64,000 nucleotides of DNA from a virus: positions 1 through 64,000 of the IMG/VR virus record IMGVR_UViG_3300036766_000548. One strand, given 5' to 3'. Shown here one piece after another: positions 46,905 to 58,540 of the stretch. Made by a program: the position numbers and the translations under genes. The notes under the pieces are model-generated. The model ran no database searches and was not told the DNA's origin. It saw nothing but the letters and a program-made list of their open reading frames with translations. The stretch's first letter is position 1, and the number at the start of each line of letters is the position of its first letter.

Positions 46905-48330
46905 TTATTTTTCGTTTATATCTACATTTTTCTTCACTTTTATTCTCATATCCTATAACCTCTTTTTTCATCCTTGAATCGATGCATGGCCTGCCTAAAT
47001 CCAAGCATTGCAACACCACGGCCTGATCCGATATATGTCTACCTTCCCGCACTTCCATTAACCCTAACCTGATTATGTTATTCTCATTTTCCTTGTCTGT
47101 AGCGTTCAAGCTCACTGCCAATGTCACATGGTTTATTTTCCTGATATCCTCAGATGCCTGCGAAGTCTTTATGTCGCTATCAAATGTTTTCTTTTCTGTA
47201 TGGCTTGCCGTGATTATAGCTATATTCCGTTCATTAGCCATATCGCGTAAGCCTTTCCAAATAGTGTTTATTTTATCCCTATTATCAGTATATTTTTTCC
47301 CAGGCTCCATGTAATCTGCATAATCAATAATAATCACATCTGGAATGAAGTTCTCATAATAATATAAATTATCACAAAGGCTTTCAATCATATTCACCGT
47401 TGCCCCAACCATAGGAACTATTTTTATCCTGCCTTTTCTATATAACCTCCTCAATTTTTTCTGGAAATCCTCGATGGTGTTCAAGTCCGTTCCTTGCATG
47501 TCAATCTCATCTTGTTCTATTTTATATTTATTGGTAGATTCATCCAATTCAAAATGCGCCGAATGGATAGTACGATTATATAACGGTTCTCCGGTAAGTG
47601 AAGGCCATGAACGCTTTATTATTGATACATCATTCATCTCCAAAGGAATATAAATGACCTTATTCCCTTGGCTCATTGCTACTTCCGACGTATACCAAAG
47701 CCAGAATGACTTGCCACGTTTGGCAGGCCCAAAATACGACATGAAATCGCCACGAGAAATAGGTTGGATGATTGTCCCTACGGCACCAGGAAATTTTATT
47801 ATCTCTGAATGCTCTTTTGTCAATGCGTCTAGTATTTTGTTATGGTCATGAAGTAAATCGATGCCTTGGCCTGTCGGCTTTTCTACTCGCTTATAATTTG
47901 ATACGTATTGTTCGGCCTTCACAGGATCATTACTAGCTATAGCATCTTCTAATTGTTCTTTTAATAATTCAGCAGAACGTATCTTCAAATAATTCACACA
48001 CTGGGTTATTTCAAAATTGATATTTATGTTTTCTGATTCTTCGTAGCTCTTACTTAACGATTGCAGCAAGACAGAAATATTATCAGATGTTTCCTCATCA
48101 TCCTGCAATGATAATTTATTATTTAAATAGATATCCTTGATGTGCTGTTTTGGCGCGCAGGAAAATTCGGAATAGAACTTTTCGACCCACTTATGGATTT
48201 CGCGCCCGTATGAAGTTTTCCAATATGAACTTCTGATTATAGGCAATACTTCTTGGCAAAATCTTGTATTAGTTATGAGGAGCGTTAAAATTTTTCTTTC
48301 AAAATCCAAGGAAATTTTCGTTCGCGTCAA
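46897..48330 (-). CDS. Replicative DNA helicase (DnaB-like)
   Basis: GPAKRGKS, LEM, IIIDYAD, SEDIRK. Confidence 0.85.
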   Translation of the reverse strand: MTRTKISLDFERKILTLLITNTRFCQEVLPIIRSSYWKTSYGREIHKWVEKFYSEFSCAPKQHIKDIYLNNKLSLQDDEETSDNISVLLQSLSKSYEESENININFEITQCVNYLKIRSAELLKEQLEDAIASNDPVKAEQYVSNYKRVEKPTGQGIDLLHDHNKILDALTKEHSEIIKFPGAVGTIIQPISRGDFMSYFGPAKRGKSFWLWYTSEVAMSQGNKVIYIPLEMNDVSIIKRSWPSLTGEPLYNRTIHSAHFELDESTNKYKIEQDEIDMQGTDLNTIEDFQKKLRRLYRKGRIKIVPMVGATVNMIESLCDNLYYYENFIPDVIIIDYADYMEPGKKYTDNRDKINTIWKGLRDMANERNIAIITASHTEKKTFDSDIKTSQASEDIRKINHVTLAVSLNATDKENENNIIRLGLMEVREGRHISDQAVVLQCLDLGRPCIDSRMKKEVIGYENKSEEKCRYKRKINE

Positions 48331-48905
48331 ATAATATCCTTTTTATTCAAGATATATTTTTGAATATCTATGAACCTAATCAGTGGTTCCTTATATTCTG
48401 GTTTCTTAGAAAAATGATACCAAGCATAAACCATCATTCCAGTATGTATTTTATTATCCTTTCGTAATGGTTCACCTAACATCGGATATCGATCAAATAC
48501 ATAAATACAATTTAATGGGAATATCTTATCTGAATAAATATAATCTAACCGTTGTTTCCCATGCAAATATGATAATGGAAGCAGAAAATAAAAATCATTA
48601 CATAAAGTTTTTGCCTTTTGTATAAATTGAAACGCCAATGAATAAGGTGGATTAGTTATGATAGTTTTATACTTATTGGTTTCTGATAAAAAATCCTGCC
48701 CATGTTTAATATCATAAAAATCCACATTTTCATATTCTTTTAATAATATCTTTACTATCGCTCCATTGCCACAAGCTGGTTCTAATATCGGCTCTTTTAA
48801 TTTAACTAATTCTAATAATTTAATAGTAAGACATGAAGGAGTTTCATAAAAATCAGATTTCTTGCGTTGTCCAACATTATTACAAGAAAAGTTTTTACCT
48901 TTCAA
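48327..48905 (-). CDS. Small adenine-specific DNA methyltransferase
   Basis: DFYETP, ILEPACGNG, IITNPPY. Confidence 0.85.
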   Translation of the reverse strand: MKGKNFSCNNVGQRKKSDFYETPSCLTIKLLELVKLKEPILEPACGNGAIVKILLKEYENVDFYDIKHGQDFLSETNKYKTIITNPPYSLAFQFIQKAKTLCNDFYFLLPLSYLHGKQRLDYIYSDKIFPLNCIYVFDRYPMLGEPLRKDNKIHTGMMVYAWYHFSKKPEYKEPLIRFIDIQKYILNKKDII

Positions 48906-49267
48906 ACGATATCCTTTTTACTTATATCTAAAATCCAATCCTCACACATTAATCCTAAATCGCTAGGGTGTGGGTCAAATACTAATTTGCCATTTTTATA
49001 AATACAAACATGATTGCATCCACGTTCTGATTTTCCCATAACAATATAATATCCGTCTTTTATATATCTATCATATTCTTTATCAAATCTTACCAATCCA
49101 TTATATTCATATCCAATACTATCTAAATACTCAATTACTTGACTCCAAAAATCTTTCATTCCAATAAAATCAGGAATATCATTTATGTCTTTTTCAAATA
49201 TAGAAGCAAAACAAGCTGATAAACAATTACCACCAGGATAAAGGGTGGTTTGTTTTACTTTTACCAT
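48902..49267 (-). CDS. Hypothetical protein (GNC..AC..S..H..DP, papain/C39-like pattern)
   Basis: Conserved-looking C/H/D pattern. Confidence 0.5.
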   Translation of the reverse strand: MVKVKQTTLYPGGNCLSACFASIFEKDINDIPDFIGMKDFWSQVIEYLDSIGYEYNGLVRFDKEYDRYIKDGYYIVMGKSERGCNHVCIYKNGKLVFDPHPSDLGLMCEDWILDISKKDIV

Positions 49268-49620
49268 ATTATCCTATCCTTTAATTTTTCTATCAATGCT
49301 TTTGAATATAATCCCGTAATTCCAACTATTGTTTCTTCATATCGCTTAGAAAAACATTTACCCATGTGATAACAAGTTTCAATAGCGGCGTGGCAACATT
49401 CATGGACTATCGTATCAATCGTCAAATCTTCTTTTGATAATTTCACGCTGCCTATATATGAACTATTTTGACTAGCAGGAACAAATAAACCAAACGATCC
49501 TTTTAATCTTTTATTATCCTCGATCATTTCTTCTCTAGAATCATACAAATAAACCGCTAATTCATATTCCTTGTGTTTATGCTCGGGCATATACCAATAT
49601 GAACCAATATATTCTTTCAA
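49261..49620 (-). CDS. HExxH-containing hypothetical protein
   Basis: TIVHECCHA...EE. Confidence 0.55.
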   Translation of the reverse strand: MKEYIGSYWYMPEHKHKEYELAVYLYDSREEMIEDNKRLKGSFGLFVPASQNSSYIGSVKLSKEDLTIDTIVHECCHAAIETCYHMGKCFSKRYEETIVGITGLYSKALIEKLKDRIIW

Positions 49621-49850: not shown

Positions 49851-50041
49851 TATATGTCCTTGGTAAAAATATGAAAACCTAAAATATACAAAAATCCTAC
49901 TTTCATCGATTCATTGGCAAAATATTTTACATCCTTCCTGAAATCAATTATGAAATATGAGAATATCGGGAAACTGAAAATGATTATAGAAAATATATCT
50001 TTTCGCCTGCCGCCCTTGATAGTACCAAATGGATATTTCAT
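49850..50041 (-). CDS. Hypothetical protein
   Basis: Translationally coupled ORF. Confidence 0.4.
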   Translation of the reverse strand: MKYPFGTIKGGRRKDIFSIIIFSFPIFSYFIIDFRKDVKYFANESMKVGFLYILGFHIFTKDI

Positions 50042-50633: not shown

Positions 50634-52088
50634 TTATTGCAAATTTTTTAGCAATATTTCGTCAAAACTATAATTAAAAATTCCTTTAGATTCTTTGCCA
50701 TCGAGTATCATTGACATTGACCTAAAGCTTTCCTCTATTCTGTCTGCAACTATATTCTCAATAGTTCCATTGGCAAATGGGAAATATACATTAGCCCTTT
50801 CCGCTTTTTGTCCATATCGATCTATCCTGCTTAATACTTGTATAACCTGTCCTGGTGTATCTGGCATTTCTACTATTCCTATCCCTTCGCTTGCCGTTAA
50901 TGTTAAACCCTCCCCACCCGCTTCTGTTTGGATAAAAATCAATTTAACCTTTTTATCTTTTTGAAAACTATCTTCGGCCTTCTGCCTATTTATTCCAGAA
51001 ATACTTCCATCTATTTTAACTGCTACATTTTTATATTTAGTGTATAAATCATCCATGACGTTTTTATGCCAAACAGAAATAACCAGTTTATCGTGATCTT
51101 CTAAATATTCGTCTATCCATACAAATAATGCTTTTTGCTTTGCTAAATATGCTAATCGTTTTAATTCACTTAACGTATTCTTTCTATCTTTCTTGTTCAG
51201 TATCTTATTAAAATCATTGCTTAGATTATTGTAATTCTTAGCTTCTAATTTTGTCAATTCCAATGGGATAACAGTAAATATTGGTTCTTTTCTTGTTTTC
51301 TTTCTTCGTATCATTATCTTTTTTAATTTTTCATTTAATTCTTTTTCGTTACTCGATCCGTTAAATTCCCATCCGCCTTTATATCCGATGGTAGGCTCGC
51401 AATAATGCCAATAATAAGAATATTCTTTAGGGAATAATTTAGGCGCTGTTAAATGCAATATGGTCCAAAAATTACGTGGACGCTTCCTGATTGGTGTTCC
51501 TGATAATGGAATGAACACCTTGGGCTTTAATTTATTTACTAATTCGACAAAACACATTGTCCAAATAGCTTTTGGATTCCCAAGTCTATGCGCTTCATCC
51601 GGTATTACACCGATTATATTTAATTTAGTTAATTCTTTCCACCACCCTTCTAACCTGACTATGCCCTTTTTATATCTATGCTTTTTATATTTTGTTCCAT
51701 TCAATTCACATTCTTGCTTTATCAATAATTCTTCTTTATCAAATTTCAATTTTCGTTTATCTTCTAATTTTCTGTCTTTAGCGTTTTCCTTTCCTAATAT
51801 ATGATAATTGATAATATAGTAACAATAATTTTTAGATAAACTGAATTGCTTTTCGCCATTGATTATATATGAATCTTTTCCCGTCCACTTTTCTATTTCT
51901 CGTGCCCATTTGAGTTTCATTGATTTGGTGCAGACAATTAAATATTTCCCTGGATAGCTGATATCGCTTATACCGATAGCTTCTATTGTTTTGCCAAGGC
52001 CACACTCATCCCCAATAATAGCATAGCCATTATGTTCCTCGACAAATTTAATACATTCTTTTTGATACGGAAGATACTTAAGCTTCAA
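50634..52088 (-). CDS. SNF2/HARP-like helicase
   Basis: DECGLGKT, DEAH, LSGTP, GEGLTLT, Q...RIDR.GQ. Confidence 0.9.
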   Translation of the reverse strand: MKLKYLPYQKECIKFVEEHNGYAIIGDECGLGKTIEAIGISDISYPGKYLIVCTKSMKLKWAREIEKWTGKDSYIINGEKQFSLSKNYCYYIINYHILGKENAKDRKLEDKRKLKFDKEELLIKQECELNGTKYKKHRYKKGIVRLEGWWKELTKLNIIGVIPDEAHRLGNPKAIWTMCFVELVNKLKPKVFIPLSGTPIRKRPRNFWTILHLTAPKLFPKEYSYYWHYCEPTIGYKGGWEFNGSSNEKELNEKLKKIMIRRKKTRKEPIFTVIPLELTKLEAKNYNNLSNDFNKILNKKDRKNTLSELKRLAYLAKQKALFVWIDEYLEDHDKLVISVWHKNVMDDLYTKYKNVAVKIDGSISGINRQKAEDSFQKDKKVKLIFIQTEAGGEGLTLTASEGIGIVEMPDTPGQVIQVLSRIDRYGQKAERANVYFPFANGTIENIVADRIEESFRSMSMILDGKESKGIFNYSFDEILLKNLQ

Positions 52089-52144: not shown

Positions 52145-52267
52145 TTAATTCTCACAGATAATAGCGAGTTGACCACAAGCAGCACCGGCGTTAATTTCGG
52201 CTTGTGTCGCGATTGCAATGGCATAATCATAACCAGACTTCTGTAATTCTTCCTTAATGCGTTCCAT
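52145..52267 (-). CDS. 40-aa peptide equivalent to the RlmN/Cfr C-terminal catalytic-Cys segment (missing from ORF track)
   Basis: GGAG RBS; MERIKEELQKSGYDYAIAIATQAEINAGAACGQLAIICEN. Confidence 0.8.
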   Translation of the reverse strand: MERIKEELQKSGYDYAIAIATQAEINAGAACGQLAIICEN

Positions 52268-53078
52268 ATATTTCTCCTTCTACTAAAATAGGATCGTCGA
52301 TAAATCCGTTCCTCAAAGAATGAATATCAAGTACTAAATTACCCGCAATGCATTTCATTTGATTATTTACTTCACGTTGATATATTTTTGGATATGGATA
52401 TTTGTTGTATATAAAATTAGCACATGAACAACCGTCCCTTTCCATTGATATTGTTTTTCTATAACCAATTAAATCATTTATTGCGACATAATGATTGACA
52501 CTATAATCGTTTACTTTCATAAGACCCACAAATCCAAAATCCAATACTCCTTTATTTGAATAATATTCTATATATTCATTTATTTTTTCGTTTGAATCAA
52601 CAAGTCCTTTTTGTAGAACGCATGATAAATGCAATTTATCATTCCCATAAATATCAATCATTGAATCAATCTCGAAATCGTTTATTGAATGCCTACTTAA
52701 TGAAATACTATTCACTAATTCATTATTCAACTCGATGCCCTTTCTAGTGTTTATAATTATAAACATTTCAGGGAAAAATGACCGTATCAATTTACATGCC
52801 TGTTCTACCTCATTAGTAAAATATCCTGGCTCACCTCCAGTAAAAGAAACCCTGTTTATATTGATATTTTTGTCTTTTATGCTAGTCAAAATATAAGACA
52901 AAAGGTCCAAAGAAAATACATCCTTTTTATCTGAACTATATACACAAAATGGACACCCCATATCACAATAATCAGATACGCGAATAAATAAATTAACATA
53001 AGGATCGCAATATTTTTGAGATAAACAATCAAAATTTTTTGTCTTTACAACATCTATCCAACTAGACATTTTTAGCAA
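52254..53078 (-). CDS. Radical SAM protein
   Basis: CDMGCPFC, FTGGEP. Confidence 0.85.
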   Translation of the reverse strand: MLKMSSWIDVVKTKNFDCLSQKYCDPYVNLFIRVSDYCDMGCPFCVYSSDKKDVFSLDLLSYILTSIKDKNININRVSFTGGEPGYFTNEVEQACKLIRSFFPEMFIIINTRKGIELNNELVNSISLSRHSINDFEIDSMIDIYGNDKLHLSCVLQKGLVDSNEKINEYIEYYSNKGVLDFGFVGLMKVNDYSVNHYVAINDLIGYRKTISMERDGCSCANFIYNKYPYPKIYQREVNNQMKCIAGNLVLDIHSLRNGFIDDPILVEGEIYGTH

Positions 53079-53362
53079 TGCCCACTACCACAACCACAAC
53101 CACCGCTACTACCGCCTCTATTTATATCACTAGAATTAATAATCTTTTTTTTACTCATGTTTTTAATAGGCTTGTCCTCACAATATTTATTATCGATAAA
53201 ATGAATTAGTAAATCAAAACACTCATTAGATATGGCGCCGTCAATATGGAGCTGATTTATTCTTTTATACACATTTATTATACCATTTGTTTTTATGCTC
53301 TCTTTTATACTCGGTAGCCAGAATTCCATTTCTTCGTTCAATTCTCTTTCATTTGATTGCAT
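53072..53362 (-). CDS. Small protein with Gly/Ser/Cys-rich C-terminal tail (start MQSN)
   Basis: AAGGAG RBS before ATG at 53362; ends RGGSSGGCGCGSGHC. Confidence 0.7.
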   Translation of the reverse strand: MQSNERELNEEMEFWLPSIKESIKTNGIINVYKRINQLHIDGAISNECFDLLIHFIDNKYCEDKPIKNMSKKKIINSSDINRGGSSGGCGCGSGHC

Positions 53363-53375
53363 TTTTAGTACTCCT

Positions 53376-54161
53376 TTATATGATATTAATGCCTTGAATG
53401 GCACCATTTCCCATATTGTTTTTCTCAGAAATCGTATTTTTATTTATTGGTGATAACTTGATAAAAAATCTATTCTTGTCAAAAAGTCTCTTTAATTCTT
53501 CTATATCAAAATCGCCTTCTTCAACCAATGTCATGTTAATAGTTGTTTTAAGATTGCTTTTGGTCCGTATATTGCTTAATTGTTCTAGTGTCATTTTATT
53601 TTTATATGGAATAAGCCAATTTCGTTTTTCATTTTTAAGAGAATGCACGGATATTTGAAGGGTTATGTTGTCCTTTATCCAAGAAAAATCAGAACCAATA
53701 ATGCCTATCGTAGAAATATAATGATGAGTTTTAGGATATTTTTCATCTATTTTAAATATAGCATCCTTTACATTATCTATATTTAGGAACGGTTCACCCA
53801 TTCTAGTATAATTTATCTTGTGTTCAAATGCTTCTTGAAAACGTTCAGTTCTTTTAGATAAAACAAATTCAACTTGTTCCACAATTTCTTGCGATGTAAG
53901 GTTCCTGTATTTTTTCATTGCACCCGTAGCACAAAATTTGCATCTAACTGGACATCCCGACATCGTAGAAACGCCAATCATCCAACGTTCTTTTCTACTC
54001 CCTATTTTTGTATCATGAAGTATATTTTGTTTTTGTCCAATAGCATCTTTAGTATATGAAGGCAAAAATGTATCGGTTACCTCAATAAGAAAATTATCTT
54101 CTGTTTTTAAGGCATATACAATTCCATTTGCGAATTCTTTATGCTTAATTTCTGTCAACAT
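53376..54161 (-). CDS. RlmN/Cfr-like radical SAM enzyme lacking the C-terminal CGQL
   Basis: VSTMSGCPVRCKFCATG, RNLT..EIVEQV, MGEP.LN, ISTIG, LQISVH. Confidence 0.85.
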   Translation of the reverse strand: MLTEIKHKEFANGIVYALKTEDNFLIEVTDTFLPSYTKDAIGQKQNILHDTKIGSRKERWMIGVSTMSGCPVRCKFCATGAMKKYRNLTSQEIVEQVEFVLSKRTERFQEAFEHKINYTRMGEPFLNIDNVKDAIFKIDEKYPKTHHYISTIGIIGSDFSWIKDNITLQISVHSLKNEKRNWLIPYKNKMTLEQLSNIRTKSNLKTTINMTLVEEGDFDIEELKRLFDKNRFFIKLSPINKNTISEKNNMGNGAIQGINII

Positions 54162-54251
54162 TTACCATCTCCTTATTCCATTTTCTACTATTCAATGTCG
54201 TAACCAAATCATCCACATCTCCAGTATAATATCTCCAATAATCCCGCTTGT

Positions 54252-55226
54252 CTATTTTGTTATATTCCCTTGACCAATATCCTTTGCCTTATTATTATGA
54301 TCTATACAAACATCCAAACAATTTTTTCTGCAAATAAGATCGTTATAAGTATTTGTTTTTTCAAACCATATTTTTCTTTCTTGTCTAATTTCTTTAATAG
54401 ATTTCCCATAAACATTCCCAATAGCTTCGCCTTGCTCGCGCATATAAATTACACAAGGAAAATGTTTTCCATGTAAAATAACCATATCATCTTTTACTAA
54501 ATGGCATTTATTGCAATCGGTTTCTTTCATGCCTCTAACATGCCTTCCATTATTTATATTATTGATCCTATATTTCAATATCTTATATTTTGTTTTTACG
54601 TTTATATTCAAATAATGATTTGATTGTGCTGTAGGAATAATTCTAATATCTGATACTTTTAATTTAGTTGCAAATTCAATAATATTTTTCAATTCATCAT
54701 TATTTTGTTTGTCCAATACCACCCCTACAGTTACATAAGTCAATTTAGATAATTCTTTTATAATCATCGCTATATGCTCAAAATGAGAATTGGTCCCTGC
54801 CATAATATCGGCAGTAGAAGAGCAACAGGCATCTAGCGAAATTGAAAAATCATTTATTCCGGCTTTGTGTAATTGCTTATAATATTCTAATTCTGCCGAT
54901 CCATTTGTAGAAATAGCAATATGTTTAATACATTTTTTGCTTTTAGTGTATTGAACCAATTCTAATAAATCTTTCCATATAGTAGGCTCACCACCTGAAA
55001 ATCTTATATTATGTAAATTAGCAGAAGTCCAGATATCTACAATTTCTTTTGCTTGCTCTAAAGTTAAATCCCCTTGAAGGTCTTTTACTATCCCTCGGCA
55101 ATAAGGACATTTGAAATTACAACGATTAGTCAATATCAATTCACACCGTTGTAAATCACTTTCCCAAGAAACGTTTTTTGCCCTTTTATCGGAAAGAGTA
55201 TAAAATCCAATATCTTCAAGTTTCAA
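54252..55226 (-). CDS. MoaA/PqqE-like radical SAM protein with Cys-rich C-terminal domain
   Basis: CNFKCPYC, FSGGEP, STNGS, SISLD; C-terminal CxxC..PC..CxxxCxxxC. Confidence 0.85.
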   Translation of the reverse strand: MKLEDIGFYTLSDKRAKNVSWESDLQRCELILTNRCNFKCPYCRGIVKDLQGDLTLEQAKEIVDIWTSANLHNIRFSGGEPTIWKDLLELVQYTKSKKCIKHIAISTNGSAELEYYKQLHKAGINDFSISLDACCSSTADIMAGTNSHFEHIAMIIKELSKLTYVTVGVVLDKQNNDELKNIIEFATKLKVSDIRIIPTAQSNHYLNINVKTKYKILKYRINNINNGRHVRGMKETDCNKCHLVKDDMVILHGKHFPCVIYMREQGEAIGNVYGKSIKEIRQERKIWFEKTNTYNDLICRKNCLDVCIDHNNKAKDIGQGNITK

Positions 55227-56097
55227 TATTTAACTCCTTTCTAACTATATTTTCCTCATCCTTTGTATAATCACCAGGATCATGTTCAAACTCAGGATTG
55301 AATATTTCCACTTCCACGCCTAATGCCGATAACTGCTCACCATATTTTCTCGCCCTATCCTGCGCCATTTTCTCATTGTCGAATAAAAATATAACTTTCT
55401 TGAATCGTTTGGAAAGTAGGTTTATTTGTTCCGGTGTAATTTCAATACCGAAAGAACAAGAAACATTATTGTGGCCTAATCTCCAACAATCGAATGGCCC
55501 TTCTACCAATATTATATAGTTATTCATACAATTATCTAGGTTATATAGTATTTTTTTATTGGAAATAATTGCTTTATCTGTTTTTAAATTTCTATATCTA
55601 ATTTCATTGTTTACAATTGTTCTCCCTAAGAATGTCACTAATTTATTTTGATAAAAAACTGGAATAATAATTCTAAAATTCCATTCTCCTATAATCCCTC
55701 CACCTTGTATTTTATATGTATCTACTAAATAATAAGGATCAAAATTCCTTTTAATCAAATATTTCCTTTCTTTTTCATTTAATATACTTCCAGGCAATTC
55801 AATATTATGTATTTTACCTTGTGTTTTATTCAATTTATTCAATACTATTTTATCAATAGTATTTTCATTTAATAATATATTAAGATCATTAAACGACAAA
55901 TTCAATAATTTTTGTAAAATATCCTTTGCATTTATTCCACCACATCGCCAACAATTATAATAAAATTCATTTAGATTAAATCCACCATGATATTTAGTAT
56001 CATTACAATTTGGACAGCAAACATTTATCCATCCATTATCACCTACTTGATATTTTATTCCATATTGTTTGAACATACTAGGAAGATCAATTTTCAT
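55216..56097 (-). CDS. DNA primase (zinc finger + TOPRIM)
   Basis: CPNC...H...CWRCG, RIIIP, GR, VEGPFD, FDNE. Confidence 0.85.
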   Translation of the reverse strand: MKIDLPSMFKQYGIKYQVGDNGWINVCCPNCNDTKYHGGFNLNEFYYNCWRCGGINAKDILQKLLNLSFNDLNILLNENTIDKIVLNKLNKTQGKIHNIELPGSILNEKERKYLIKRNFDPYYLVDTYKIQGGGIIGEWNFRIIIPVFYQNKLVTFLGRTIVNNEIRYRNLKTDKAIISNKKILYNLDNCMNNYIILVEGPFDCWRLGHNNVSCSFGIEITPEQINLLSKRFKKVIFLFDNEKMAQDRARKYGEQLSALGVEVEIFNPEFEHDPGDYTKDEENIVRKELNIET

Positions 56098-56860
56098 TGT
56101 TCTTCCTTTTTGCTGCTTCTTTTCGTTCTCTAGTTTTACGTTTTGTTTCTTTTAATTTGTTTATAGATTCTTGTGTCCATACTCTACCTACGCCTCTTAA
56201 TCCAATTATTCTTTTTTGTTCATCTGTTAAATGTTTATGTAATCTTAATTGCGCTTGTCTATTTTTTTCTATTTGTTCTGGAGTCTTTTTTCTGCCCTTT
56301 TGTGCATCGCTAATTTTCTTTTTAGTTTCCTCTGATACTGGATGACCTTTTATCCTTTGTGATAATTTCTTTTTGGCCTCTTCTGTATGATGTCTACCTA
56401 GATGAGCTAATCTGTTTTTTTCTTTTGCTTCTTTAGATGGTTTCCATCCTAAATTTCTTAATCTAGATTTTTCACAAAACTCTTTTGATCTTTTTTGTCC
56501 TTTATTAGCTATGCTTAATTTCTTTCTTGTAACTTCGTTGGGTATTCCTCCTGATCCACCGCCGTCCATAAGGTTATATCCATATTTGCTGTTTGTGCTT
56601 TTATATTCTTTAATCCAATATTTTTCTTTTCTATCTAATGTTCTTTTTGAGTAAGCAAAATCTATTGTAGCCCATTTGAAATTGTTTTTGCCATATTTTT
56701 TTAACGCCCTTTGAAAATAATAACCATCCCCTCTTTGAGCACTAGATAAATGCAATGATTTTCTTCTTCTTAATGTTCCAGTAGTTTGCCCAATATAAAC
56801 TTTATCATTCATGATGTTTCTAGCTCTGTAAATAATGCCATAAAGTTTCTTTTCTTTCAT
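56087..56860 (-). CDS. GIY-YIG homing endonuclease with NUMOD3 repeats
   Basis: IIY...N..N.KVYIGQT, ALKKYG..NF, GYN...GG, repeated SEE.K.KIS. Confidence 0.9.
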   Translation of the reverse strand: MKEKKLYGIIYRARNIMNDKVYIGQTTGTLRRRKSLHLSSAQRGDGYYFQRALKKYGKNNFKWATIDFAYSKRTLDRKEKYWIKEYKSTNSKYGYNLMDGGGSGGIPNEVTRKKLSIANKGQKRSKEFCEKSRLRNLGWKPSKEAKEKNRLAHLGRHHTEEAKKKLSQRIKGHPVSEETKKKISDAQKGRKKTPEQIEKNRQAQLRLHKHLTDEQKRIIGLRGVGRVWTQESINKLKETKRKTRERKEAAKRKNNEN

Positions 56861-57805: not shown

Positions 57806-58540
57806 TTAAAAACCTTTATAAACATAAAATATTCCATCCTTATCCCACATATATCCATAACCCAATTTCCAGATTTCCCAAACTTTATTAAAAAAATCAA
57901 TAGCTATTGAATCTTCAGAAATAATAGATGCGGCTGACTCTGCGGCTGACTCTGCGGCTGACCATGCGGCTGACCTTGCGGCTGACCTTGCGGCTGACCA
58001 TGTGGCTGACTCTGCGGCTGACCATGCGGCTGACCATGCGGCTGACCTTGCGGCTGACTTTGCGGCTGACTTTGCGGCTGACTTTGCGGCTGACCATGCG
58101 GCTGACTTTGCGGCTGACCATGCGGCTGACTCTGCGGCTGACCATGCGGCTGACCTTGCGGCTTCATAAGTATCAAACACTTTCCAATTTTCTTTTATCT
58201 CGCCATGATTATCAAACCATTTTACATTCTTGATGTCATTTATGAATTTCTGAGCATTCAACCACCATTCATTTTTAATATTACCTTTTGCATCATACCT
58301 TACGCCAGCAACACCAAAGCATTTTGCCATCTTATCCATATGGCCATCATTTATTCTTTTAGCAATCTGTACGGGAACCTTTTGCCAATTCTCATGGTGA
58401 GTACCAGCAATTCCATAATATTTTTCTATTGCTGAATGTCCGATAGCATCTTCAAATTCAAGTCCTTTGGCCTCGATGATGTCATCTTCAAGCCAATACA
58501 ATTTCCGTCCTACTGATACCCAAGAACAAAAATCGCACAT
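57806..58540 (-). CDS. AAxS tetrapeptide-repeat phage protein
   Basis: MCDF.SW...GHS.I N-terminus; AGGAGG RBS; repeat tract. Confidence 0.75.
   Translation of the reverse strand: MCDFCSWVSVGRKLYWLEDDIIEAKGLEFEDAIGHSAIEKYYGIAGTHHENWQKVPVQIAKRINDGHMDKMAKCFGVAGVRYDAKGNIKNEWWLNAQKFINDIKNVKWFDNHGEIKENWKVFDTYEAARSAAWSAAESAAWSAAKSAAWSAAKSAAKSAAKSAARSAAWSAAWSAAESATWSAARSAARSAAWSAAESAAESAASIISEDSIAIDFFNKVWEIWKLGYGYMWDKDGIFYVYKGF
57929..58162. repeat. 12-bp tandem repeat, about 19.5 units (TGCGGCTGACnn)
   Basis: Encodes AA[W/K/R/E]S on the - strand. Confidence 0.95.

Follow-up and report, generated by a model that had tools for sequence, protein, structure and literature searches.

The virus record IMGVR_UViG_3300036766_000548 of IMG/VR is a complete genome of 78,011 bp with direct terminal repeats at its ends, and its positions 1 to 64,000 form the stretch analysed here, hereafter the window. 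The genome is that of a tailed phage, encoding terminase, portal and head proteins, a family-B-type DNA polymerase and a UvsX-like recombinase. Within its replication block, flanked by a primase and a SNF2-family helicase, five genes are packed on the − strand: three radical S-adenosylmethionine (SAM) enzymes, labelled rSAM1, rSAM2 and rSAM3 in gene order, a small protein whose last residue is cysteine, hereafter the tail protein, and a 40-residue product, pep40. An earlier account made from the letters alone (the sequence-only reading) located these genes correctly and treated them as one system of three radical SAM enzymes around a small Gly/Cys-tailed protein. Our analysis points instead to three separable modules: the tail protein with rSAM3 (module A), rSAM2 with pep40 (module B) and rSAM1 (module C).

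Running along the − strand, the primase (55216..56097; Toprim, PF13155, E = 8e-7) overlaps by 11 nt the gene of rSAM1 (54252..55226), a 324-residue protein with a MoaA-like core. Next come rSAM2 (53376..54161; 261 residues), with a catalytic core of the RlmN/Cfr type, the tail protein (53072..53362; 96 residues, ending ...SSDINRGGSSGGCGCGSGHC), rSAM3 (52254..53078) and pep40 (52145..52267), which carries the motif AACGQL and matches the C-terminus of RlmN. The SNF2-family helicase (50634..52088; PF00176, E = 1.6e-20, and PF00271) lies downstream on the same strand. The rSAM3 open reading frame (ORF) spans 274 residues, and from its likely start, an ATG at 53069, the protein has 271 (52254..53069). 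The junctions are tight: the rSAM2 stop is 13 nt from the ATG of the tail gene, with AGGAG between them 8 nt before that ATG; 2 nt separate the tail gene stop from the rSAM3 ATG; and the pep40 ATG sits inside the 3′ end of rSAM3, with a 14-nt overlap and an AGGAG upstream. These junctions indicate translational coupling, and between positions 50000 and 57300 no terminator-like site is seen, against 2.8 expected from shuffled sequence. None of the five genes is a chance ORF, because each has conserved homologues elsewhere. All three enzymes pass the Pfam cut-off for Radical_SAM (PF04055, 29.5 bits), rSAM1 with 88.1 bits (E = 9.7e-25), rSAM2 with 46.1 bits (E = 7.6e-12) and rSAM3 only narrowly, with 30.5 bits (E = 4.9e-7).

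Comparison of neighbourhoods shows that the tail protein and rSAM3 are a conserved, dedicated pair. A word-based search with rSAM3 finds seven related proteins, and the closest, P0122 (79% identity), lies on one 13,392-bp contig with P0129, which at 57% identity is the tail protein's sole close homologue and ends in ...GTGGCSGSC. A scan of viral contigs for close relatives of rSAM3 alone returns nothing, and an alignment-based scan finds homologues at 30 viral loci, mostly in phages of 140–425 kb. Immediately upstream of the rSAM3 homologue, 20 of the 27 distinct viral loci have an ORF that ends in cysteine, compared with 6 of the 346 other ORFs of these loci; a tail protein not conserved beside the radical SAM genes would have counted against the sequence-only reading, but it is conserved beside one of them. 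At locus L085, a homing endonuclease (L085:3208-3909, judged by eye) lies between the tail gene and rSAM3. Among 185,579 prokaryote species, each represented by one genome, there are two true matches to rSAM3, one of which comes from a phage contig of 425 kb that had been binned as archaeal. From these distributions the pair appears to be essentially phage-only, jumbo phages included. In a separate arrangement, locus L068 has two overlapping tail genes in tandem (L068:3326-3568 and L068:3558-3788) upstream of a single rSAM3 homologue; their products end in ...NSNGRC and ...FRSTTC, each with the terminal cysteine only.

Cysteine is also what the tail family conserves best. In the window protein, a helical N-terminal part is followed by a K/S-rich linker and then by a Gly/Ser/Cys tail, ...GGSSGGCGCGSGHC, that places three cysteines and one histidine within eight residues (CGCGSGHC). 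Members of the family were recognised through gene position and the terminal cysteine, and afterwards through a profile; a BLASTP comparison of the window protein with the tail protein of locus L041 gives no alignment, and an ESM Atlas search with the window protein returns no usable match. The aligned family, A3, shares a helical N-terminus, a K/S/P-rich linker and a tail, with Met1 and the C-terminal cysteine as its only invariant residues. Searched against 1.84 billion representatives at E ≤ 1e-3, the family profile finds 231 clusters, 138 of them small. The C-terminal cysteine is present in 135 of the 138 small relatives, a count somewhat biased since the terminal cysteine column was part of the search profile. 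Exactly two cysteines fall among the final 22 residues in 112 of the 138, and two or three in 126. The second cysteine, found in about 92% of relatives, usually lies 9–12 residues before the terminal one; a DPC motif is present in 60 of the 138, and D-P-C-G-x-G-G-Y-x-R-S-S-C is the typical form. No conserved acceptor motif, such as CX3D, is seen in the family alignment or the profile matches. The Cys/Gly/Ser-rich core on which the sequence-only reading drew thus narrows to the terminal cysteine and, usually, its upstream companion.

The same reading had offered an iron–sulfur (Fe–S) carrier as the alternative role for the tail protein; such a carrier would bring a cluster or a metal to the neighbouring radical SAM enzymes. 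The CGCGSGHC tail of the window protein would suit such a role, but this pattern is not conserved: most relatives have two cysteines 9–12 residues apart, 10 of the 138 have a single one, and only the terminal cysteine is near-invariant. Pfam and NCBIfam scans of the tail protein give no match, thus none to the Nfu, IscU or A-type-carrier families. We consider a carrier role extremely unlikely.

The partner enzyme, rSAM3, has seven invariant cysteines, those of the CX3CX2C motif and C18, C153, C217 and C219 (numbering of the 274-residue ORF; 26–27 of 27 sequences); the four extra cysteines suffice for a second Fe–S cluster and could hold one. No SPASM, twitch or RRE domain is found in rSAM3 by Pfam or NCBIfam. 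The AlphaFold 2 model of rSAM3 (predicted local distance difference test, pLDDT, 83.5) has its best fold matches tied at Z 16–17: GDGT-MAS, MoaA (Z 16.9, root-mean-square deviation (rmsd) 3.9, 238 residues aligned), viperin-like enzymes (Z 16.5) and SuiB. Because these matches are tied, the fold gives no substrate class. Family models separate rSAM3, and rSAM1 with it, from the named nucleotide-acting enzymes: against MoaA (TIGR02666, cut-off 284 bits) rSAM3 scores 24 bits and rSAM1 101.6 bits, and neither has a Pfam match to Mob_synth_C (PF06463). Resemblance to prokaryotic viperin (pVip) in PADLOC is confined to the core, with 58 bits over positions 9–179 of 262 for rSAM1 and 26.6 bits for rSAM3, and against NF038283 (cut-off 180 bits) the two score 46 and 26 bits, neither matching full length.

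Predicted complexes of rSAM3 with the tail protein reach a median score of 0.45 (runs of 0.45, 0.03 and 0.72), and the best of three controls scores 0.00. In calibration, 58 of 80 solved complexes attain this mark, as do 2 of 110 mismatched pairs, although scores of 0.60 or under comprise only 7 of the 80 solved complexes and both passing mismatches. At least 8% of contacts agree between runs, and the pLDDT of the partner is at least 56. The predicted complex lends weak support to the pairing.

The proposal that the tail protein is a radical SAM substrate keeps part of its force. A helical N-terminus and a flexible, cysteine-bearing tail fit a substrate or a partner, but of the three enzymes only rSAM3 is the partner. 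We propose that rSAM3 would recognise the helical N-terminal part of the tail protein and thread the flexible tail into the radical SAM barrel, where it would act on the tip: the invariant C-terminal cysteine, usually together with the second cysteine 9–12 residues upstream. In thioether-forming maturases the substrate cysteine binds an auxiliary cluster; by analogy, the four extra cysteines of rSAM3 would most likely hold a second Fe–S cluster that could be bound by the terminal thiolate. The reaction would be likely either to crosslink the tail internally through a C–S bond or to alter the terminal cysteine oxidatively. For action on a terminal residue the closest parallel is mycofactocin. 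MftC is a radical SAM–SPASM enzyme that works with the chaperone MftB, and its peptide MftA ends in Val-Tyr. As in that system, a small gene product encoded beside a radical SAM gene conserves its final residue, which bears the free carboxylate; unlike it, module A ends in cysteine and no chaperone gene is seen. The NCBIfam model of the mycofactocin maturase (TIGR03962) matches rSAM1 only, far below its cut-off, and not rSAM3.

Module A also recalls the sactipeptide and ranthipeptide systems (SkfB, CteB, PapB), in which a radical SAM enzyme with extra cysteines stands beside a small protein with a recognition-like N-terminus and a cysteine-bearing tail. The sequence-only reading argued for this class from SPASM and twitch domains, an argument that suits rSAM1 but not the actual partner, since rSAM3 gives no SPASM match. 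No protease or exporter is found among the neighbouring ORFs of the window or of the 30 related loci. The partner, moreover, is about 90–110 residues long and has no conserved core pattern, and module A is phage-only. With no protease or exporter seen, no recognisable SPASM domain and only the terminal cysteine near-invariant, the sactipeptide or ranthipeptide label is not justified.

Module B has a different relationship to known enzymes. The best NCBIfam match of rSAM2 is RlmN (TIGR00048, E = 1.2e-21), at 77 bits against a cut-off of 290, and the alignment covers model positions 100–281 of 355; rSAM2 therefore lacks the N-terminal RNA-binding domain of RlmN, and its C-terminus falls at about RlmN residue 326. 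It matches solved RlmN and Cfr structures in the Protein Data Bank (PDB) and shares with these families (TIGR00048, TIGR04432; PDB 3RFA, 4PL1, 5HR7, 6FZ6, 9P0P) the core type and the CX3CX2C motif. The missing end lies in pep40, which BLASTP aligns to E. coli RlmN 327–359 (E = 0.005), including AACGQL and Cys355, and hhalign aligns to the RlmN motif (E = 3.2e-4). It corresponds to the last helix, strand and AACGQL loop of RlmN. A profile of the pep40 family searched against PDB sequences gives no RlmN match, its best hit being an unrelated designed protein (E = 0.14). A profile of 42 distinct concatenations of core and peptide aligns without a break to E. coli RlmN 112–359 at E = 4.2e-17, compared with 1.5e-14 for the core alone. 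The two genes are found together in about 75 of 80 loci; those that depart from this are at the end of a contig or show clear truncation. From this alignment evidence we identify pep40 as the detached C-terminal cysteine loop, that is, the second subunit, of an RlmN-like enzyme, and the function of Cys355 is probably kept in trans. A role for pep40 as a RiPP (a peptide made on the ribosome and modified after translation) precursor or second core peptide, which the sequence-only reading implied by counting the AACGQL peptide among a RiPP-like set, is rejected on its colinearity with RlmN. An intron or intein origin of the split is rejected as well: loci free of any insert still have a stop, a 15–25-nt spacer and a new ATG.

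In RlmN, Cys355 carries the methyl group and Cys118 is the resolving cysteine. The only cysteines of rSAM2 are three in number, and the position of Cys118, seven residues before the cluster motif (−7), is occupied by glycine in the window protein and in 120 of 120 close homologues. Cys118 is needed for methylation by RlmN, and the C118A mutant traps a covalent enzyme–RNA complex (PMC5130265). With Cys118 replaced by glycine, rSAM2 and pep40 would be unable to finish the reaction as RlmN does: pep40 would supply the Cys355-equivalent loop in trans and the reaction would end in a different way. Module B thus resembles RlmN and Cfr, scores far under the family cut-off and, as read from its alignments, departs from them in three defining features: it is made of two polypeptides, with the Cys355-type cysteine on a separate 40-residue product, it has no N-terminal domain and it has glycine for Cys118. 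A database search with rSAM2 shows a large family of 4,094 proteins at E ≤ 1e-3, of which the 120 top-scoring members all have about 261 residues. The natural comparison partner for the split form is a fused relative of 309 residues (L098:1632-2558), which aligns end to end with the split family (E = 5.7e-23). Its Cys118 position holds cysteine and its Cys355 position holds ITCGNA, and it likewise lacks the N-terminal RNA-binding domain. The fused gene also has primase and SNF2 on its two sides, and the rSAM1 of its phage shares 79% identity with the window's.

The gap between rSAM2 and pep40 varies widely. It measures 15–25 nt in eight loci and in Kehishuvirus tikkala (L001), and elsewhere holds up to 5.6 kb of cargo. 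In 44 loci the cargo is a further radical SAM enzyme, rSAM-B (CX5-11CX2C motif), with a 148-residue methyltransferase-like protein; in 13 loci besides the window it is the tail protein and rSAM3; and further loci, L068 among them, hold both cassettes. One locus, L050, has the reverse order, with the peptide before the core. Homing endonucleases occur in the slot at L067:2787-3629 (GIY-YIG/NUMOD3, Pfam) and L071:3333-3614 (judged by eye). These endonucleases suggest that mobile genes use the slot as a landing site. In the window, module A occupies this gap, which carries other cargo in other phages. The idea that rSAM3 and rSAM-B, the second enzyme of loci of the L004 type, are alleles is rejected: they share no detectable similarity and belong to different cassettes.

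The main rival to a substrate role draws in part on the absence of Cys118. The tail protein might be a dedicated thiol or dithiol co-substrate for rSAM3, and perhaps also for the Cys118-less enzyme, delivering reducing equivalents, a hydrogen atom or sulfur, much as the C-terminal cysteine pair of class I and II ribonucleotide reductases re-reduces the active site. The two or three cysteines among the final 22 residues of 126 of the 138 small relatives, the last of them at the tip of a low-complexity tail, would suit such a shuttle, as would the resemblance of rSAM3 to small-molecule and nucleotide enzymes (MoaA, viperin) as much as to peptide maturases, and the lack of the resolving thiol from the RlmN-like core in all 120 close homologues. 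A second thiol, either at the −4 position of the core or in the peptide, is lacking in 10 of 16 distinct loci with the tail protein–rSAM3 cassette and in 4 of 30 without it, the presence of rSAM3 having been corrected by hand; a shuttle would explain why the cassette is commoner where core and peptide offer no second thiol. This enrichment is confounded by shared ancestry, however, as 22 loci are near-identical crAss-like lineages. Ten of the 138 relatives have the terminal cysteine only, the pair is present in records without an rSAM2 homologue, and most split RlmN loci have no tail protein. On balance we regard a thiol co-substrate as unlikely. A resolving cysteine relocated within module B itself, to the −4 position of the core or as a second cysteine of the peptide, suits many loci but not all: in Kehishuvirus tikkala and three GVSVMSG loci without rSAM3 (L037, L043 and L048) both the second thiol and the cassette are missing, and ten cassette-bearing loci likewise lack the thiol.

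The third module, rSAM1, is the one to which the sequence-only reading ascribed extra C-terminal cysteines, and these are real: C241, C258, C299, C303 and C307 are invariant in 21 homologues, together with C36, C40 and C43. Its AlphaFold 2 model (pLDDT 89.6) matches BlsE (Z 22.8, rmsd 3.4, 280 residues aligned), SkfB (Z 22.1) and DesII (Z 20.6) along its whole length. SkfB, BlsE and DesII resemble rSAM1 in this respect and in the conserved C-terminal cysteines, but identity is only 12–21% and no family cut-off is passed. Homologues occur at at least 76 viral loci, with 46–80% identity among those aligned, and 65 of the 80 loci returned by the rSAM1 scan contain no other gene of the cluster. 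Genes that recur beside rSAM1 encode a GGDEF-like protein in 14 loci, RtcB in 11 and an RNA ligase in 7. By fold and distribution, rSAM1 is a twitch-type radical SAM enzyme, widespread in phages as a gene on its own, that stands outside the tail-protein pair. At one of its loci an intein-interrupted RNA ligase gene (L131:2763-3353; PF14890, Hint) adjoins the rSAM1 homologue.

These distributions bear directly on whether the five genes form one pathway, in which the tail protein and the peptide would work together with all three radical SAM enzymes in nucleic-acid hypermodification or a RiPP route. Such a pathway would account for the tight packing on one strand with no terminator-like site between the genes, for the slots at L068, L069, L072 and L077 that hold up to three radical SAM genes (rSAM2, rSAM-B and rSAM3), and for L078/L119, the only other phage to join an rSAM1 homologue (51% identity) to the tail protein and rSAM3, all within 1.5 kb. 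Across loci, however, the three modules are found in every combination. The pair lies outside the slot, with no rSAM2 homologue at E ≤ 1e-5, in five records of 95, 86, 79, 52 and 27% completeness; it lacks rSAM1 at E ≤ 1e-10 in ten records, four of them 97–100% complete, the absence calls for both enzymes coming from partly incomplete records. Conversely, about 55 loci have rSAM2 and pep40 but no rSAM3, and rSAM1 and rSAM2 are mostly found without the pair. The neighbours that recur beside rSAM1, RtcB, the GGDEF-like protein and the RNA ligase, also speak against a shared pathway, which we judge very unlikely.

Our preferred reading treats the cluster as a composite of three separable modules, with the tail protein of module A as the substrate of rSAM3; we put the two parts jointly at about one in two. 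Several observations weigh against it. Six of the 27 rSAM3 loci have no adjacent ORF with a terminal cysteine. The fold of rSAM3 is equally near nucleotide-acting enzymes (MoaA, viperin) and the peptide maturase SuiB, no SPASM, twitch or RRE domain is recognisable in it, and no protease or exporter lies nearby. One of the three complex runs scored 0.03. As to separability, the five records lacking rSAM2 are partly incomplete, and of the roughly 26 loci whose flanks are complete, 16 have the pair nested in the rSAM2–pep40 slot at an rSAM3 identity of only 27–35%, so modules A and B could be functionally linked. A bolder form of the substrate proposal builds on such a link: the pair would be a phage-specific system for C-terminal-cysteine remodelling of a small carrier-like protein, a modification of the protein tip or a scaffold chemistry for which no counterpart has been described, and the nested product would work with the Cys118-less enzyme, for instance by providing the missing resolving thiol, the two together placing an unusual mark on phage or host nucleic acid or attaching a peptide adduct to it. 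We think this form quite unlikely.

Other genes around the cluster and its relatives are recorded here in their own right. In several jumbo-phage loci, genes of NAD (nicotinamide adenine dinucleotide) salvage flank rSAM3 or rSAM2 (L085:1887-2921, L088:477-992, L052:3627-4991); the set comprises AAA_28 (NadR-type kinase-like), the nicotinamide mononucleotide transporter PnuC (PF04973, E = 3e-42) and NAMPT (PF04095/PF18127), and may mark a counter-defence or auxiliary-metabolism island. In the window, a GIY-YIG/NUMOD3 homing endonuclease (56087-56860, − strand) lies just upstream of the primase. A 119-residue protein (49261-49620, − strand), encoded 2.5 kb from the Cys118-less RlmN-like enzyme, has an HECCH metalloprotease-like motif and a weak SprT-like match below cut-off (PF10263, E = 4.4e-4). 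SprT/Spartan proteases cleave DNA–protein crosslinks, and with a Cys118-less RlmN-like enzyme nearby, this makes the protein a lead. The replication block also encodes a 192-residue protein (48327-48905, − strand) that contains TNPPY and weakly matches N6 DNA methylase (PF02384, E = 1e-3). Further upstream, the middle third of a 244-residue protein (57806-58540, − strand) consists of about 16 tandem repeats of the type SAA[WKER]SAA, across which both other frames and the opposite strand are open.

Much new chemistry comes from radical SAM enzymes that are paired with small gene-encoded partners, and to our knowledge almost all such pairs belong to bacterial RiPP or cofactor pathways. In the literature on crAss-like and other phage radical SAM enzymes, split RlmN or Cfr, partners with C-terminal cysteine and phage RiPPs, we found no description of module A or module B. 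To treat the three enzymes as one pathway would misdirect experiments, a picture that the present analysis corrects. What emerges is a phage-restricted pair, with at least 138 sequence clusters in the tail-protein profile search, that keeps above all a cysteine as its very last residue and is repeatedly nested in a two-piece RlmN-like enzyme devoid of the cysteine that RlmN needs to complete methylation. Solving either reaction would show how phages use radical chemistry in replication, whether for nucleic-acid marking, for counter-defence or to make a modified small protein, each of which is possible.

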